From sequence record NC_014467.1: a stretch of DNA of 64,000 nt. The stretch is one strand, 5' to 3'. Positions 4,790-42,958 of this stretch are shown here, piece by piece. This stretch comes from Escherichia phage RB16. Both the position numbers and the translations under genes were made by a program. The notes under the pieces were generated by a model. That model was given only the letters and a program-made list of their open reading frames with translations, did no database searches and was not told the DNA's origin. Within the stretch, counting starts at the first letter, position 1. Each line of letters starts with the position of its first letter.

Positions 4790-4960
4790 CCGTGAGCGAA
4801 GCGAACACACGAACGAAGTGAGTGTTTTTTAACTCAACTACATAATTATATATTTATATTTTATATATAGAGAAAAATGTAGTTTTTGGTATAGTTTTTA
4901 ACCAACTGTAAACTATCCGTCTTCGCTTCGCTTGACGGAACTCGCTTCGCTCGTGATCTT
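4790..4960 (+). repeat. repeat cassette copy A: GC-rich inverted-repeat arms flanking an AT-rich core
   Basis: Arms GAGCGAAGCGA...ACGAACGAAGTGAGTG (4794-4824) and TTCGCTTCGCT...TCGCTTCGCTC (4921-4955); core about 90% identical to copy B at 41798-41966. Confidence 0.8.
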
Positions 4961-4970
4961 GAAAAACTAT

Positions 4971-4999
4971 TTGACCCTTTCAATAAATAGGTATATCAT
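4971..4999 (+). promoter_or_regulatory. sigma70-like early promoter (TTGACC-17-TATCAT) in front of the Ip-like gene; an AATAAATA late-promoter-like motif lies in the spacer
   Basis: Hexamer match and spacing; directly downstream of repeat copy A. Confidence 0.45.
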
Positions 5000-5027: not shown

Positions 5028-5813
5028 ATGAAATCATTCAAAGAACTACTGTCTGAATCTGTTCAGACCAAAAAATTTGCTAAAACTGTTGATCTGGTTG
5101 ACCGTGGTAATGCTTCAAAAGGTCAGATCGGTTTCCTGCACTTTGCACACGGTGCTGATTACGATGTGTATGCGCCGGACTCTCACGATCTCGCCTACTT
5201 CGGTAAAGGTGTTGTTCGCCTGAAAGGTAAAACCACTGGTAAAACTCAGGCTGCATATGTTGACTGGGCGAAAGGTACGGTTTCTTTCTATAGCGGCGAT
5301 CCGGCAGATGACCTGAAATTCGACAAGCCAGCGAAATTCAAAGGCGCTTCCCTGTACAAAGAAGCCGAAGAAAATCTGGATCTGTATAATCAGTTAGCGG
5401 AAGACTTCGAAATTGATGTACCGATGGATGAAGCACTGGTGAAAGGTAAGGTGTACAAGCTCCCAAGCAACGATATGCGCTTGCTGTATACCGGACGTAC
5501 CAAAAACAAGCCTACAGGTGAATACGCTGTGTTTACGGTTGTAGATGCCTCCGGTAAGCCTCGTCTGGTATCGGGTAAACGATTTACCCAGGAATACAAA
5601 GGCGATATGCTGTCTAAACTGGTTCTCGCTGAATCGGAAGATCTGAACGAGGCCGCTAAAGGCATTCGCGAAAAAGTTATTGCGGTGTTGGTGAAGCGCG
5701 GGTTTAACGAAAAAGATGCAGAAAAGATGGTTGATAAAAACCTAAAAGATGCGATGAAAGTTCGCCCTGGTGCAACTCCAGGAAAACTAGCGGAAATCGT
5801 GAGCACCTTGTAA
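5028..5813 (+). CDS. internal-protein-like basic protein with capsid-targeting leader (Ip-like)
   Basis: N-terminus MKSFKELLSE matches the T4 internal-protein leader pattern MKTYQEFIAE cleaved by gp21 after L/I-x-E; Lys-rich 262-aa product; strong terminator downstream; ORF track gives a longer ORF from 4932. Confidence 0.6.
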   Translation: MKSFKELLSESVQTKKFAKTVDLVDRGNASKGQIGFLHFAHGADYDVYAPDSHDLAYFGKGVVRLKGKTTGKTQAAYVDWAKGTVSFYSGDPADDLKFDKPAKFKGASLYKEAEENLDLYNQLAEDFEIDVPMDEALVKGKVYKLPSNDMRLLYTGRTKNKPTGEYAVFTVVDASGKPRLVSGKRFTQEYKGDMLSKLVLAESEDLNEAAKGIREKVIAVLVKRGFNEKDAEKMVDKNLKDAMKVRPGATPGKLAEIVSTL

Positions 5814-5817
5814 AAAT

Positions 5818-5848
5818 AAAGCCCCTTCCTTTCGGTTGGGGCTTTTTT
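5818..5848. terminator. bidirectional rho-independent terminator (AAAGCCCC-loop-GGGGCTTT + T7), copy 1
   Basis: Hairpin between convergent Ip-like gene (+) and gp2 (-); near-identical hairpin at 42925-42958. Confidence 0.75.
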
Positions 5849-6702
5849 TAATATCGGTTCCAAACTTTTTTCGCGCTGTATGGTTTTCCTTTCGACTGGA
5901 AAGCCTGTGTAGGCAACCAAACTGCTTTCGCCCAGTCTTTTGGGGCTATCTCTGCAAGAGGTGATCGCAGGTGCGCAGGTAAGTATGCTTTGATCATTTG
6001 ATCTGCACCGCGCATCCCTTTCACGTTGTTCCAGTTGATTTTCAATCTGGTTTTGTTTGAAAGGCGATCTGTTGATCCGTATCCACGTTTCAAAAGTTCT
6101 TCTAAAAACTCTTGACGGGCTTTAGGTGGCGCATAGTGCAAGTTCAAACCGTACAGAACTAAATTACCCGCTTTAGAACGTCCTGAACCCAGGAAGATGA
6201 TTAGCGGGAACCGATCCCAGTATGGTAGGGTATCTTTGTATTTCGCGTCATACACGAACGTATACAATCGCCCTGTTGCTGGTTTCGCTACCCTGTGCGT
6301 TTTGATGCTGGTTTTGATGAAGTCACCAAACCAATCGGTTGAATCCTTTTGACGTTTCGCAGCAGAAACACCCACTGTAATTTTCCGTAAACTATTTCGG
6401 AAGTCGTTGATGATGTCAACTGTATGTTTTTTGCGATAGTCATTGCGTTTTCGTCGGGCTTCGGTTTCTGCTGTACGTCGCGAGATTTCATCATCAATCT
6501 GCTGTTTATAGCGGTGCATAGACTTTGTGAACGTTGCGTATGCAATCCCGTTTTCGTCCGCGAATTTTTTGGCTGTCATGCCTTTTAATTTTGCGCGTCT
6601 GAATTTAACACCCAGTTCAACCCATTCACCAAGTTTTCGCTTCGGTGGCGGTTTCGGCTTATCTTCTTCTGCGATGATCTCAAACTCAAATATAAAACTC
6701 AT
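5848..6702 (-). CDS. 2: gp2 DNA end protector protein
   Basis: 284 aa, position and size as T4 gp2; basic N-terminus. Confidence 0.7.
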   Translation of the reverse strand: MSFIFEFEIIAEEDKPKPPPKRKLGEWVELGVKFRRAKLKGMTAKKFADENGIAYATFTKSMHRYKQQIDDEISRRTAETEARRKRNDYRKKHTVDIINDFRNSLRKITVGVSAAKRQKDSTDWFGDFIKTSIKTHRVAKPATGRLYTFVYDAKYKDTLPYWDRFPLIIFLGSGRSKAGNLVLYGLNLHYAPPKARQEFLEELLKRGYGSTDRLSNKTRLKINWNNVKGMRGADQMIKAYLPAHLRSPLAEIAPKDWAKAVWLPTQAFQSKGKPYSAKKVWNRY

Positions 6703-12318: not shown

Positions 12319-12996
12319 ATGAATTACGATAGGATATATAAAGCTCTTATAGATAAGCGGAGGAAAACTCCGCTTAAAGACGGATATAAGGAACATCATC
12401 ACATCATTCCTAAATCTATGGGCGGTAGTGATGATTTTGATAATATGGTGTATTTGACAGCGAGAGAACATTTCGTTGCGCATCTTTTACTCGCTCGTAT
12501 ACATGGTGGTAAGATGTGGTTTGCTGTTGCTATGATGTGTGGGCGTGGATCAAGTAGCGCGAAAGGCGTTGTCCCTACTTCTCGAATATATGAGTTAGCC
12601 AAAAAACGGGTAGCCAATGAAAGAAGTATATTGTTTTCTGGGAAATTACATCCATTATACGGAAAGCCTTGTACAGAACAACGAAGAAAACGCATAGCTG
12701 AAGGACGTAAAGGGAAAACGCATACTCAGGAAACGAAACAGAAAATGTCTGAATCGAAGAAAGGATATAAACATACTCAGGAGACGAAACAGAAAATGTC
12801 TGAGTCACGGAAGAGACAAACACCTCCTACTCTGGGTAAAAAGTTACCTTCTCCATCAATCGAAAAAAGAAAGAAACTTAGTGAGGCTATTAAAAATCAG
12901 CCAATCATCAAATGTCCATATTGCGGGTTAGAAAGTAACAGCAAAGGAAATATGGTGAGGTTTCATTTCGACAACTGCAAATATAGGAAACCATGA
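12319..12996 (+). CDS. HNH homing endonuclease with tandem NUMOD3-like DNA-binding motifs
   Basis: HNH core EHHHIIPKSMGGSDDFDNMVYLTAREHFVAH; repeats GKTHTQETKQKMSESKKG / YKHTQETKQKMSESRKR; C-terminal CPYCG zinc finger. Confidence 0.85.
   Translation: MNYDRIYKALIDKRRKTPLKDGYKEHHHIIPKSMGGSDDFDNMVYLTAREHFVAHLLLARIHGGKMWFAVAMMCGRGSSSAKGVVPTSRIYELAKKRVANERSILFSGKLHPLYGKPCTEQRRKRIAEGRKGKTHTQETKQKMSESKKGYKHTQETKQKMSESRKRQTPPTLGKKLPSPSIEKRKKLSEAIKNQPIIKCPYCGLESNSKGNMVRFHFDNCKYRKP
12721..12815 (+). repeat. tandem direct repeat (about 51 bp x2) encoding the NUMOD3 motifs
   Basis: CATACTCAGGAAACGAAACAGAAAATGTCTGAATC... repeated with few substitutions. Confidence 0.7.
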
Positions 12997-39772: not shown

Positions 39773-40411
39773 ATGAAACACATCATTTATAAAATAACAA
39801 ACACCATCAATAACAAAATATATGTTGGTGCTCACTCAACCGAAGATATCAACGATTCATACATGGGTTCCGGTATTGCAATCAAAAAAGCGCAAAAGAA
39901 ATATGGTATGGAACATTTCACAAAAGAAATACTTCATGTATTTGATACCCGTGAAGAAATGTATGAGAAGGAAAGGGAAATAGTTGATATTGAATTCATA
40001 AATCGACCAGATACATATAATGCTGGTATTGGTGGTAAAGGTGCTCCAATGGCGTTGATTGGATGGAGTGATGAACAACGCAAGCTGATTTCCGAAAATA
40101 CTTCGAAAGCTATGCAAACTCCAGAAATGCGCGAACGCCTTTCAAAAATAAAAACAGGGAAGAAGCAATCAGAAGAATCCAACAGGAAGCGTTCAGAGAC
40201 TATCAAAGCTATGTACAAGGGTTCTGCATTCGACAGAACCGGATCTAAGCTCACAGACGCGCACAAGGCCAAAATAAGCCGTTCTGTGTCGATAGATGGA
40301 GTTGTTTACGCAAGCGGTTCCGATGCTTCTAAAGCGTTGGGGCTTTCTCGATCTGGCCTTGATTACCGTTTAAAGAGTGACAAATTTCCTGAATGGAAAT
40401 TCGTTGCATAA
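39773..40411 (+). CDS. segD: GIY-YIG homing endonuclease (SegD-like) between genes 23 and 24
   Basis: N-terminal HIIYKITNTINNKIYVGAHST GIY-YIG motif; same position as T4 segD; clear paralogue of the endonuclease at 6699-7388. Confidence 0.85.
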   Translation: MKHIIYKITNTINNKIYVGAHSTEDINDSYMGSGIAIKKAQKKYGMEHFTKEILHVFDTREEMYEKEREIVDIEFINRPDTYNAGIGGKGAPMALIGWSDEQRKLISENTSKAMQTPEMRERLSKIKTGKKQSEESNRKRSETIKAMYKGSAFDRTGSKLTDAHKAKISRSVSIDGVVYASGSDASKALGLSRSGLDYRLKSDKFPEWKFVA

Positions 40412-40449
40412 ATAAACAATATACTCCCTCTAATTCAGGAACCAAAGAA

Positions 40450-41748
40450 ATGAGTGATAAACACTACACAATTCACAAGTTGATGCGTCAGTCTGCGCTT
40501 CCGTCTGGTAAACGCGAAAAGGTTATCAACGAAGCAACAGGCACGACCGATATCAACGTACAGAACACGCGCCCAGAACTGGTTTCTTTGACTCGCGCTG
40601 TGAACAACCTGATCTATCATGAACTGGTTGCTGTACAAGAAACGGATTTACCAGTAGCTACCCTTTTCGGTGTTCGTTATCGCAACCCTAATGGGGACAT
40701 GACTTTCTCCAGCGCTGCAACCTATTCAGGCCGCATATCTGGACGTACAGACATCGACGATATCGATCTGGCTAAGGCATACGTCAAAGGCGATTTATTC
40801 AAGCACGATGTCACTGACGTTGTGTATGAGGTCATCGAACCTGTAAAGCTAAACGCGCTGGATACTGATAAAGACACCGCAATCATGAAAGCTGTGTTCC
40901 AAAGTAAAATTCGTTTGGTTAGCGAAGCCGCAGACACTTCAAAATATGAAACCAGTGAAGATATCGCATCAACCTCTTTCCAGATGGATCGTTGGAACAT
41001 TCCGGTTCGTTCACGTAAGTTTAAAACTGAAATGACCGTGGAATTGATGCAGGATCTGGAAGCAAACCAGTTTGAAGCCGATGGGGTAATTGAAGATATC
41101 CTGGGTACGGTTGCAAGCGAAGAAGTCAACAAAGATATTATTCAGACGCTGATCACCGTTTCCAAACGATATAACGTTGATGGTGTAGTTGTCGATGGTA
41201 TTTTTGACGGTACAACCACATACACTGCGAAGGATGCTCCAGCATTGGGCCGCATACTCTATCAATTAGCGTGCGAAATGGGCCAAGAAATGAATAGAAC
41301 GACTTCATTTGATGCAACCTACGTCCTCGCTAGTGCTCGCGTTGTAGGCGTTCTGGCTGCGTCTGGTTGGATGACCGAAACCGACGAACAACACCCGCTG
41401 GCAACTGGTAAACTTCAAAACGGTTATTATGTCTATACCGACACGAATACACCGTTTGATTATCTGCTTACCGGATGCAAATACGATCTGGGTGATATGG
41501 ATCACGTAGGTTCTCTGTTCTTCACTCCGTACACCGAAGCGGATGATGCAGGTTCAATCAAGGTATCCGTAGATCCTGCATCACTGCAACCGAAAGTTGC
41601 TATTCTGATGCGTTACGGTTTATCTGTGAACCCATACACAACGGAATCCGACTCTGAACGGTTGACCAAAGGCGATGACTGGTCGAATCTGGCTGGTAAA
41701 TCCAAACTCAGTCAAATCGTAGGTATTAAATTACCTAAGCTGGGTTAA
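40450..41748 (+). CDS. 24: gp24 head vertex protein
   Basis: About 432 aa; start at MSDKHYTIHKL after SD (track ORF begins at 40393 inside the endonuclease gene); 7/8 late-promoter-like CATAAATA at 40407. Confidence 0.9.
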   Translation: MSDKHYTIHKLMRQSALPSGKREKVINEATGTTDINVQNTRPELVSLTRAVNNLIYHELVAVQETDLPVATLFGVRYRNPNGDMTFSSAATYSGRISGRTDIDDIDLAKAYVKGDLFKHDVTDVVYEVIEPVKLNALDTDKDTAIMKAVFQSKIRLVSEAADTSKYETSEDIASTSFQMDRWNIPVRSRKFKTEMTVELMQDLEANQFEADGVIEDILGTVASEEVNKDIIQTLITVSKRYNVDGVVVDGIFDGTTTYTAKDAPALGRILYQLACEMGQEMNRTTSFDATYVLASARVVGVLAASGWMTETDEQHPLATGKLQNGYYVYTDTNTPFDYLLTGCKYDLGDMDHVGSLFFTPYTEADDAGSIKVSVDPASLQPKVAILMRYGLSVNPYTTESDSERLTKGDDWSNLAGKSKLSQIVGIKLPKLG

Positions 41749-41797
41749 TCAAGTTTTGAGAAGACCATTATAATAACAAAGATCAAGAAGGTCAAAC

Positions 41798-41966
41798 GAG
41801 CGAAGCGAGTTTTCACGAACGAAGTGAGTGATGGGTACTACTAACTACATAATTATATTTTTATATTTTATATATAGAGAAAAATGTAGTTTTTGGTATG
41901 TTTTTTAACCAGATGTAAACTAACATTCATTCGCTTCGCTCATTCATGTACTCACTTCGTTCGTAG
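41798..41966 (+). repeat. repeat cassette copy B (same element as 4790-4960)
   Basis: Arms GAGCGAAGCGA...ACGAACGAAGTGAGTG and TCGCTTCGCTC...ACTCACTTCGTTCGT flank the shared AT-rich core. Confidence 0.8.
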
Positions 41967-41968
41967 AT

Positions 41969-41996
41969 TTGACTTCTTGATCATGATGGTTATAAT
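41969..41996 (+). promoter_or_regulatory. strong sigma70-like promoter TTGACT-16-TATAAT upstream of uvsY
   Basis: Consensus-like hexamers, 24 nt before uvsY ATG. Confidence 0.6.
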
Positions 41997-42019
41997 ACTA
42001 CTTTGTTTTGAGGTGATTC

Positions 42020-42442
42020 ATGGCTGAACTAAAACTTGAAGATTTACAGGCTGAACTCGAAAAGGATATGTTGATCGACCCTCTGAAACTACAGAGTGAA
42101 TCAGCAGACATTCCTAAGATTTGGTCTAAGTGGCTTCGATATCATTCGAATGCTAAGAAAAAACTGATCCAGCTACAGGCCAGGAAAGAAGCAGAAGTGA
42201 AAGAACGTCTTCTGTATTACACTGGACGGCATGAGACTGAAATGACTGATGTCATTTACACAGGTTCAGGTGAAATTAAGATTGCGATCAATGGCGATCC
42301 GAAAATTGTTGAGGTTAACAAACTGATTCAGTATTTCGAACTGATTGCAGAATTCACCAGTAAGGCGCTGGACATTGTTAAGAACAAAGGATATTCTATC
42401 AAAAATATGTTGGAAATCCGAAAACTTGAGAGTGGTGCATAA
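42020..42442 (+). CDS. uvsY: UvsY recombination mediator protein
   Basis: 140 aa; LEDLQAELEKDMLIDPLKLQSE...WSKWLRYHSNAKKKL...ERLLYYTGR pattern matches T4 UvsY as I recall it. Confidence 0.85.
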   Translation: MAELKLEDLQAELEKDMLIDPLKLQSESADIPKIWSKWLRYHSNAKKKLIQLQARKEAEVKERLLYYTGRHETEMTDVIYTGSGEIKIAINGDPKIVEVNKLIQYFELIAEFTSKALDIVKNKGYSIKNMLEIRKLESGA

Positions 42443-42639: not shown

Positions 42640-42920
42640 GTTGATTCGGGATGTTTCGAAGACGAACACCCAGATTTTTAGGGTAGGTAAAAAGTTGCCA
42701 TAGGCAAGACAAATCAAACTATAGGACAAACTTACGGATAGCCTAACGCCGAGGTGAGAACGTTAACTTTTGTCCGAGGCGGGTTTGAGTTCGAAACGCA
42801 AGGATCGGACGCTCTAAATACTGGTGTACCCCTTGTGGGGCTTGGCTGGCTGATTAATCAGCTTACGCAGTTTAGAATAGCGGTGTCGTCACCGCGTTAA
42901 AAATCAACTATGCTTCAAAA
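42640..42920 (+). ncRNA. candidate structured non-coding region (function unknown)
   Basis: About 280 bp without plausible ORF on the plus strand, several hairpins and a perfect 14-bp palindrome GCTGATTAATCAGC; ends at a strong terminator. Confidence 0.25.
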
Positions 42921-42924
42921 TTAA

Positions 42925-42958
42925 AGCCCCTTCCTTTCGGTTGGGGCTTCTTTTTTAG
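42925..42958. terminator. bidirectional rho-independent terminator, copy 2 of the hairpin at 5818-5848
   Basis: AAAGCCCCTTCCTTTCGGTTGGGGCTT followed by T-run; between convergent plus-strand region and uvsW.1. Confidence 0.75.

Follow-up and report, generated by a model that had tools for sequence, protein, structure and literature searches.

A repeated, structured DNA element upstream of uvsY in Escherichia phage RB16: a candidate replication origin or promoter-associated repeat

We analysed a 64,000-nucleotide stretch of the genome of Escherichia phage RB16 (NC_014467.1; hereafter, the window), focusing on the spacer between gene 24 and uvsY, which holds copy B (41794–41965) of a repeated, structured non-coding element. 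Over 41700–42100 the window is 98% identical to Escherichia phage Lw1, in the RB43 group (genus Pseudotevenvirus). The genes run in the order gp23, a GIY-YIG-like open reading frame (ORF), gp24 (40393–41748), the 271-bp spacer, uvsY (42020–42442, plus strand), which is the first gene of the cassette behind copy B, small ORFs and a terminator, after which uvsW.1 and uvsW are encoded on the opposite strand. An earlier reading of the sequence by itself (the sequence-only reading) had placed in this spacer an AT-rich repeated core, GC-rich inverted repeats and a near-consensus promoter, and this anatomy holds. Copy B lies between the end of gp24 at 41748 and the start of uvsY at 42020; its core (41843–41922) is 94% identical to 4836–4915; the GC-richer motif GARCGAAGYGA is found on both sides of the core; and the promoter TTGACT-16-TATAAT (41969–41996) matches 11 of 12 consensus positions. 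The GC content of the window is ~43%, compared with 12–15% in the 80-nt core of copy B and ~45–50% in the arms. What the sequence-only reading overlooked was a promoter on the minus strand, a third copy, the four-hairpin design of the arms, a covarying stem in the core and a terminator shared between cassettes.

The element spans ~180 bases and consists of two motifs on the top strand, the core, and two motifs on the bottom strand. In copy B the motifs start at 41798 and 41817 on the plus strand, left of the core, and at 41931 and 41952 on the minus strand, right of it. The first left hairpin, L1 (41794–41812, plus strand), reads AAAC-GAGCGAAGCGA-GTTT and holds the mini-hairpin GCGAAGC; the second, L2 (41813–41831, plus strand), reads TCAC-GAACGAAGTGA-GTGA, and its outer loop-closing pair is A:T, not G:C. 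On the right, R1 (41929–41943, minus strand) carries the motif GAGCGAAGCGA, read on the plus strand as TCGCTTCGCTC at 41931–41941, and R2 (41949–41965, minus strand) carries GAACGAAGTGA, read on the plus strand as TCACTTCGTTC at 41952–41962, with TAC/GTA flanks. With at most one mismatch, GARCGAAGYGA occurs eight times in copies A and B (four in each) and once more in the 64 kb as a stray single-mismatch match, against a mean of 4.06 over the whole window in shuffled sequence.

Each arm motif can be written as C-GA-GC-GNA-GC-GA-G, that is, a C:G-closed GNA triloop on a 2-bp stem, two positions able to form tandem G.A pairs, and then short, variable but mutually complementary flanks. The loop position N is A or T among the instances. 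L1 and R1 contain GCGAAGC, L2 and R2 contain ACGAAGT, and relatives have GCGTAGC, CCGAAGG, or GC-GAA-GC within perfect stems. By sequence, the motif falls within the definition of mini-hairpin DNA (GCGNAGC or GCGNNAGC; a C:G-closed GNA loop on a 2-bp G/C stem). In all copies, the GNA motifs are on the plus strand left of the core and on the minus strand right of it.

Variation among the arms keeps the hairpins. Between GAGCGAAGCGA and GAACGAAGTGA there is a compensatory change from G:C to A:T in the outer loop-closing pair, and at the L2 position Pantoea phage Phynn has GACAC-GACCGAAGGGA-GTGTC, with C:G as the outer pair. Stem variants (GAGCGTAGCGA, GACCGAAGGGA, CCGGC-GAA-GCCGG and ACGC-GAA-GCGT) retain the C:G-closed GNA loop. 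In some copies the whole motif is swapped for a perfect hairpin in which only the C-GAA-G apex is kept (on the GNA strand, CCGGC-GAA-GCCGG in Phynn, ACGC-GAA-GCGT in copy C and GACC-GAA-GGTC in Yersinia phage JC221). Equivalents of R1 are enclosed by CCGTC/GACGG in copy A, CCGT/ACGG in JC221 and TTCATC/GATGAA in Pectobacterium phage POP12, and Phynn has CCGGC-TTC-GCCGG instead; at the R2 position, the plus strand reads ACGC-TTC-GCGT in copy C and ATGACC-TTCG-GGTCAT in JC221. The L2 arm of the window is 100% identical to those of leB and ECW2. We measured pairing of the flanks in 201 non-redundant motif instances from all fetched loci, with re-dealt flanks as the control. At positions 0–3, the observed pairing was 0.80, 0.58, 0.35 and 0.34, compared with 0.52, 0.28, 0.25 and 0.25 after shuffling, and for these flank pairs 0–1 of 2000 shuffles equalled the observed value. 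Among the same instances, G:T was not commoner than A:C in the arm stems, which gives no pointer to RNA.

When the whole element was folded as DNA with ViennaRNA, a long L2:R2 duplex was favoured (single-strand z-scores of −3.9 and −3.7), and in copy B of most relatives the predicted palindrome spans from −35 box to −35 box, into both flanking promoters. We nevertheless demoted the idea of one big cruciform formed by long-range arm pairing. In RB16 and Lw1, the order of GAGCGAAGCGA and GAACGAAGTGA from left to right does not change across the core. The arms are therefore not nested, whereas those of most relatives are, and they are not simply two halves of one cruciform. Moreover, Phynn and copy C have lost the complementarity of L2 to R1 and R2 but keep the local hairpins, and we therefore take the local mini-hairpins, rather than the long-range duplex, to be what is conserved.

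The core contains a stem-loop (41843–41891) in which AACTACAT (41843–41850) can pair with ATGTAGTT (41884–41891) around 33 nt of near-invariant A/T sequence (41851–41883); the 3' part of the repeated core (41892–41922) has a conserved TTTTTAACCA block. Within the 33-nt loop, ATATTTTATATATAGAGAAAA is essentially invariant from RB16 through JC221 and Phynn. The stem occurs in four sequence types (AACTACA/TGTAGTT; ATGTACTGT/ACAGTACAT; ATGTCTA/TAGACAT; ATGTCCAC/GTGGACAT). Across 16 distinct sequences of the 8-bp stem, 95.3% of cells were paired and six of the eight pairs had changed on both sides. The covariation score was 0.559, compared with 0.183 in shuffles (0/500 as high), and pairing fell to 20–52% in slid registers, although the four types amount to few independent events. 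All copies within one genome usually share a stem type, which points to concerted evolution; an exception is ECW2, whose copy B has type 3 and whose copy A has type 2. A partial direct copy of the left half-stem often lies ahead of it, and these half-stem repeats could equally be three short binding sites for a putative protein.

Two other assignments of the core were rejected. As a late promoter, it would need TATAAATA, the sequence of the late promoters in the window (7–49 nt upstream of late genes), and an exact match is present in some copy-A variants only, with the gp3 promoter outside the element. As a sigma-70 promoter, its best match (9/12) is confined to copy A and is not conserved. 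Inspection by eye found neither the IHF nor the MotA consensus sequence. A search of IMG/VR with the invariant core returned known RB43-group contigs and 24 new stretches (23 complete, and one, L158, cut at the start of the locus), none with arm motifs; we took these to be chance AT-rich matches.

Copy B is flanked by back-to-back predicted promoters. Rightward, the uvsY promoter P_R (41969–41996, plus strand) precedes a GAGGTG ribosome-binding site and the uvsY start codon (ATG, 42020), and its TTTGAC and TATAAT blocks are invariant among relatives. R1 and R2 lie just upstream of it; they have no T-run, and none of the hairpins scored as terminator-like. Leftward, an early-type promoter, P_L (41767–41795, minus strand), abuts L1 and is directed antisense into the 3' end of gene 24. 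P_L is known as a consensus match only (11/12; −35 TTGACC at 41795–41790, a 17-nt spacer, −10 TATAAT at 41772–41767). Its blocks, GGTCAA and ATTATA on the plus strand, are kept in 10 Pseudotevenvirus genomes, the equivalent in JC221 is TTGATC/TATAAT, and the P_L flank is 87–94% identical to relatives, compared with 59–70% at synonymous sites. P_L appears to be an orphan: the minus-strand ORFs downstream of it encode only 30–31 aa from TTG starts with no Shine-Dalgarno sequence seen, and none is a plausible gene. The plus strand carries GTTTTGAG twice, at 41750–41762, just past the gp24 stop, and at 42001–42013, in the uvsY leader and overlapping GAGGTG. Close to its 5' end, a predicted P_L transcript would thus include CUCAAAAC, which is complementary to the ribosome-binding region of uvsY; the match may be coincidence.

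Three copies of the element are present per genome, in the same orientation, at gp3|gp2 (copy A), gp24|uvsY (copy B) and rnh|gp55 (copy C). Copy A (4794–4952) comprises L1 (4794–4804), L2 (4811–4821), the core (4836–4915) with its stem (4836–4843 with 4877–4884), R1 (4923–4933) inside the CCGTC/GACGG stem at 4917–4938, and R2 (4942–4952). It lies between the start of gp3 (4756, minus strand) and a plus-strand phrog_7322 gene, which is followed by gp2. Its rightward promoter (4971–4999, plus strand; TTGACC-17-TATCAT) drives an ORF at 5028–5813. Copy C falls beyond the window, in the gap between minus-strand rnh and plus-strand gene 55. A search of IMG/VR for pairs of arm motifs found it in Lw1, RB16, RB43 and CfP1, and it too has divergent near-consensus promoters, TTGACT-17-TATAAT toward rnh and TTGAAA-17-TATAAT toward gene 55. 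In Lw1, the copies are at ~31.7, 100.7 and 135.7 kb.

All three loci are occupied in essentially all of ~60 Pseudotevenvirus genomes, with one partial deletion, in phage Margaery. More distantly, JC221 has related copies in three places and Phynn in five, one of them at gp3|gp2 with a phrog_7322-type gene downstream; in POP12, right-arm modules are found in the rnh|55 spacer and ahead of uvsY. Identity to relatives is 80–100% in the arms, 70–100% in the core and 67–87% in the promoters, whereas third codon positions of gp24 and uvsY are 51–70% identical, except in the close relative Miller. Conservation above that of synonymous sites indicates that the element is under purifying selection. No target-site duplication flanks copies A, B or C. 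No feature is annotated inside the element in the records that we inspected, except for an unspecified "promoter" at the copy C match in CfP1. Scans with Rfam 15 of the locus, the distant phage loci and the bacterial loci matched no family, the sole match being a chance one to rliE (E=1). We found nothing relevant in the literature on the element, its motif strings, RB43-group origins or transcriptomes.

Among related phages, the same loci hold other unusual DNA. Slopekvirus genomes (84% UvsY identity) lack the element at gp24|uvsY and rnh|55; a very AT-rich stretch of 220–300 bp, with (T)AGATC(A) repeats and a palindrome, is found at both loci instead. In Klebsiella phage Matisse, these spacers (L290:640–880 and L169:590–870), which contain the perfect palindrome CTACAATGATCATTGTAG, take the position of the RB43-type element. 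Upstream of uvsY, POP12 has seven tandem 21-bp AT-rich repeats (L291:206–333), which resemble iterons or bent DNA; hairpin motifs come next, with the right-arm module that also occurs in its rnh|55 spacer. Among the matches listed in the arm-pair search, distant and apparently marine T4-like contigs have a hairpin pair upstream of gene 55 after uvsY-uvsW (L118), between a gp3-like gene and uvsY (L134) or between gp1 and a gp3-like gene (L131). Thus, the same gene neighbourhoods retain unusual non-coding DNA across the family, with a sequence that is specific to each lineage.

Most simply, copy B is one of three copies of a structured non-coding element that acts at the DNA level. In copies A and B, our promoter scan found no promoter that reads into the element, so it is untranscribed apart from read-through from gene 24; its hairpins have their sense on opposite strands; and its stems show no wobble signal. 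The lack of an Rfam match points the same way, as does the identity of the arm motif: GCGNAGC is an extraordinarily stable DNA mini-hairpin, known from the primase sites of G4, St-1 and alpha-3, from ssiA of RSF1010 (CCGAAGG) and from the hairpin promoters of N4, and a 2026 review reports that a DNA fragment with two mini-hairpins of this type binds the single-stranded-DNA-binding protein (SSB) poorly (PMC13037366).

As to function, we tentatively favour, at somewhat short of an even chance, a supercoil-responsive DNA unwinding site, flanked by outward promoters, at which replication would start (an origin or initiation zone). The melting, the extrusion of hairpins and the role in replication are what we infer. 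Outward transcription would drive negative supercoiling into the gap between the promoters, the GC-poor core would melt, and the 8-bp inverted repeat and the flanking GNA-triloop mini-hairpins would fold in the single strands and keep the bubble open. The mini-hairpins, on the top strand at left and the bottom strand at right, would then lie on the leading-strand templates for forks leaving the core. The opened core could be the entry point for the phage replisome. Primers might come from the outward P_L and P_R transcripts, with the gene-less P_L as a candidate source, or from priming by primase beside the hairpins. The core composition, the divergent near-consensus promoters at copies B and C and the conservation of a P_L without a gene make the context origin-like. 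An origin would also be consistent with the number of copies, since three among many early promoters is typical of origins, and with the origin-like DNA or hairpin pairs kept at the same loci by POP12, Slopekvirus and marine T4-like phages. A more ambitious version seems improbable to us: that the three elements are the RB43-type origins with a new, structure-based design, in which the mini-hairpins exclude gp32/SSB or recruit the helicase loader or primase, and the arm unit is a general single-stranded-DNA signal.

To our knowledge, T4 is the only T4-like phage in which replication origins have been mapped. T4 oriF and oriG are ~100 bp long and consist of a MotA-dependent middle promoter and, downstream of it, an A+T-rich DNA unwinding element (DUE) where the transcript forms a priming R-loop; the T4 origins have no common motif, and oriE, which contains 12-nt iterons, relies on an early promoter (PMC3016281). 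The most active origins, oriE, oriF and oriG, lie at transcription strand switches in regions dominated by late genes, and the workings of oriE, oriA and oriC are listed as open questions (PMC3016281). In the T4 record, oriF is placed where uvsY begins and is primed by the uvsY transcript; oriG is 2.1 kb inside gene 34 (which adjoins rnh), 2.2 kb from rnh, with a primer antisense to gene 34; and oriE, which lies within gene 5 and whose primer is likewise antisense to the gene that contains it, is 3.3 kb away from gp3|gp2. The end of copy B is 4 nt ahead of the −35 box of the uvsY promoter, copy C abuts rnh and copy A is at gp3|gp2, which puts the three loci at or within 2–3.5 kb of the equivalents of oriE, oriF and oriG. 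The distance from copy A to copy B is 37.0 kb, compared with 36.0 kb between oriE and oriF in T4.

The likeness extends beyond position. Like oriF and oriG, the RB16 sites place an A+T-rich segment near a strong non-late promoter, at points of divergent transcription that border late genes, and they share with them the locations at the uvsY promoter and rnh. Like oriE, copy B has an early-type promoter (P_L, by its consensus) antisense to a late gene, gene 24, and the gene-less, antisense P_L resembles the antisense primer RNAs of oriE and oriG in the T4 record; copy A lies 3.3 kb from the oriE equivalent. In contrast, the T4 origins have no palindromic hairpin arms or invariant core, we found no GNA-hairpin pairs in the T4 origin regions, and the RB16 sites share one repeated sequence where the T4 origins share no motif. 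No iteron array of the oriE type is present near copies A or B in the window.

Several observations weigh against an origin. The positional match with T4 is suggestive but confounded, since these loci are among the few transcription-unit boundaries that tolerate non-coding inserts. There is no TGCTT MotA box in 41749–42019, where the uvsY promoter has a canonical −35 box, and the AT-rich core lies upstream of both flanking promoters, not downstream as in oriF and oriG. The invariant 20-nt stretch in the AT core exceeds the needs of a pure unwinding element and suggests that the core sequence has a specific binding partner. Copy A had no leftward sigma-70 promoter in our scan, and no initiator gene was found adjoining the copies. 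GC skew across the window tracks the direction of transcription and nothing further. Finally, an arm motif that is high-copy in unrelated bacteria cannot be origin-specific.

The sequence-only reading had proposed that copy B may work as T4 oriF does, by a promoter plus an unwinding element. That reading is partly supported: the location at the uvsY promoter, in the neighbourhood of oriF and beside a strong predicted promoter, agrees with it, but the analogy of mechanism does not carry over. An R-loop origin in which the uvsY transcript hybridises within the AT core seems to us most improbable, because the core is upstream of both P_R and P_L, so that neither transcript crosses it, because the −35 box is TTGACT with no MotA box where T4 oriF needs a DUE downstream of a MotA promoter (PMC3016281), and because the DNA downstream of each promoter is only moderately AT-rich (30–40% GC, modestly under the 43% average). 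A further alternative is an RNA-level element, in which the core stem-loop would be a small or antisense RNA or a 3' or 5' structure of an mRNA, with the arms as stabilisers or processing signals. At copy B, where no terminator follows gp24, the late transcript of genes 23–24 must run through the element; regulatory RNAs typically show just such a covarying stem enclosing a conserved loop; and JC221 and contig L022 have C(UUCG)G-type hairpins on the plus strand in place of R2. We nonetheless regard this as very unlikely: neither strand has promoters or terminators that would delimit the core, the plus strand upstream of copies A and C is antisense to gp3 and rnh, no single transcript has all four GNA hairpins in the same sense, and the U-run after the stem is not kept between stem types; the absence of a G:U excess over A:C and of an Rfam match counts against it as well.

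The element could instead be a promoter-linked insulator or topological module, without involvement in replication, that shields or tunes a small number of strong early promoters lying among late genes. It could do so by blocking read-through, absorbing the negative supercoils from divergent transcription or binding a regulator on the core, with the repeats and the terminator as recombination handles. This is nearly as good as the origin reading, although we think it somewhat unlikely taken by itself. It accounts well for the near-consensus early promoter, ribosome-binding site and gene that follow every copy within 5–45 nt, for the 5' element and 3' terminator common to cassettes A and B, for the insertion of the copy-A cassette between gp3 and gp2 relative to T4, and for the invariant 20-nt core with its hint of a sequence-specific partner; the definition of the T4-type PeSL (promoter-early stem-loop) cassette is also similar (PMC4122927). 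It is weakened mainly by the presence of only three copies despite the many early promoters in the genome and by the variable distance and helical phase between arm and promoter (R2 at approximately −46, −59 and −74). It must also contend with copies at conserved core-gene junctions rather than in hyperplastic regions, with hairpins that have no U-tracts and do not score as terminators, with promoters that match 10–11 of 12 positions and should need no activation, and with an arm motif that is present in unrelated bacteria. That last point is what would be expected if the element were instead a selfish repeat of the kind seen in repetitive extragenic palindromes (REPs), bacterial interspersed mosaic elements (BIMEs) or miniature inverted-repeat transposable elements (MITEs), which settled in permissive gaps of the RB43-group ancestor and was homogenised by gene conversion, with little or no function. 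Among the matches listed, the arm pair is high-copy and interspersed in many bacterial phyla and in unrelated viruses, often at the apex of a palindrome; the architecture recalls E. coli BIME-1, in which inverted hairpin units surround a central motif; the core stem types evolve in concert; and Slopekvirus lacks the element at the same loci. This, too, seems unlikely, and more so than the module. Copy number is fixed at three with no insertion polymorphism in ~60 genomes save the Margaery deletion, no target-site duplication is visible, conservation is well above that of synonymous sites even when JC221 and Phynn are included, compensatory changes maintain the stems, headful-limited T4-like genomes seldom retain ~0.5 kb of useless DNA, and, among the matches listed, distant T4-like phages have hairpin pairs in the same three gene neighbourhoods. 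Such a repeat would account for the motif in many phyla but not for the invariant core.

If the origin reading is true, these would be the first sequence-defined family of origins in T4-like phages, working without MotA, in a group (RB43/Pseudotevenvirus) that includes many therapeutic phages of Klebsiella, Enterobacter, Cronobacter and Citrobacter. If it is not, a selected, structured DNA module between divergent promoters still needs explaining. We found no description of the element in the searchable literature, and we would class it either as a phage origin or as a promoter-associated repeat.

The element resembles several known systems in part. A PeSL is defined by a stem-loop that immediately precedes a sigma-70-like early promoter, together with an AT-rich stretch (PMC4122927). 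The RB16 element is likewise a composite of hairpin(s), AT-rich stretch, near-consensus sigma-70 early promoter, ribosome-binding site and start codon, and is also a repeated sequence able to mediate cassette exchange. In contrast, PeSL stem-loops are terminators, numerous and clustered in hyperplastic regions, whereas the element is confined to three conserved junctions and combines a conserved 80-nt core with four mini-hairpins, distributed over both strands, that do not score as terminators. T4-type primase (gp61) is known to need only GTT or GCT. The single-strand initiation (ssi) hairpins of G4, St-1 and alpha-3 and of RSF1010 oriV (ssiA and ssiB) present GNA or GNNA mini-hairpins at priming sites (GCGAAAGC, GCGTTAGC and CCGAAGG), and in RSF1010 an AT-rich opening region adjoins one hairpin signal per strand (PMC13037366), an arrangement that the hairpins and AT-rich core of the element share. 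The ssi hairpins differ in being recognised by DnaG or RepB' primase, and the arm motif has extra tandem G.A positions (GA-GC-GNA-GC-GA). The hairpin promoters of the N4 virion RNA polymerase (vRNAP) also use a DNA hairpin with a purine-centred 3-nt loop, which extrudes from supercoiled DNA on the template strand (PMC13037366). However, N4 hairpins are at −17 to −5 and need N4 vRNAP, whereas those of the element are 40–90 nt upstream of sigma-70 promoters, and T4-type phages use the host RNA polymerase. With REPs and BIMEs, the element has in common small, imperfect, extragenic palindromes inverted about a central motif, and its hairpin unit is high-copy in some bacteria; it differs in its low, fixed copy number in the phage (12 units in three elements), in a core in which we recognised no IHF consensus, and in an arm motif that is common across phyla, where REPs are species-specific.

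The distribution of the arm motif is a separate lead. The arm-pair pattern GAGCGAAGCGAR-N3-10-GARCGWAGYGAG gave at least 120 matches in IMG/VR (L020–L139) and at least 120 in GTDB genomes (L170–L289). Among the matches listed, the pair is multi-copy in Herbidospora species and in a metagenome-assembled genome of Coriobacteriaceae, with dozens per genome at the apex of long palindromes, and it occurs also in Bacteroidales, Acidobacteria (as an 18-nt tandem array) and Prosthecobacter; in unrelated viral contigs, including some of crAss size, it is often near terminase genes or in divergent spacers. The wide occurrence of the mini-hairpins suggests that the arms are generic structural units rather than sites for an origin-specific protein, and the double-hairpin family, widespread as it is, looks uncatalogued. 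In four distant T4-like contigs, 300–750 nt of ORF-free, partly GC-richer and structured-looking DNA follows the element (L131:2520–3100, L134:1110–1860, L022:3800–4430 and L112:4905–5215); these stretches had no Rfam match at E≤0.01.

Cassettes A and B end at similar terminators. The uvsY cassette ends at a GC-rich hairpin with a T-run (42917–42954) that is 95% identical to the terminator at 5812–5849, which closes cassette A. Each lies between convergent genes, and both are thus probably bidirectional. The single ORF of the copy-A cassette (5028–5813, plus strand), which ends at its terminator, belongs to phrog_7322, a family with no assigned function, and its product had no Pfam or PDB match; there is accordingly no such support for it as a neighbouring initiator gene. 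Its N-terminus, MKSFKELLSE, resembles the capsid-targeting sequence of T4 internal head proteins. Of the cassettes behind the three copies, only that of copy A is inserted relative to T4, between gp3 and gp2, and it is conserved in Phynn.

Two further observations concern other parts of the window. In the baseplate gene block, a coding region contains two 51-nt tandem units (12709–12810) with 80% identity to each other. Between gp23 and gp24, the GIY-YIG-like ORF (39773–40411, plus strand; 212 aa) has a GIY-YIG-like N-terminus, is homing-endonuclease-like and overlaps the annotated start region of gp24; Lw1 lacks it, and its gp23–gp24 gap is 92 nt.

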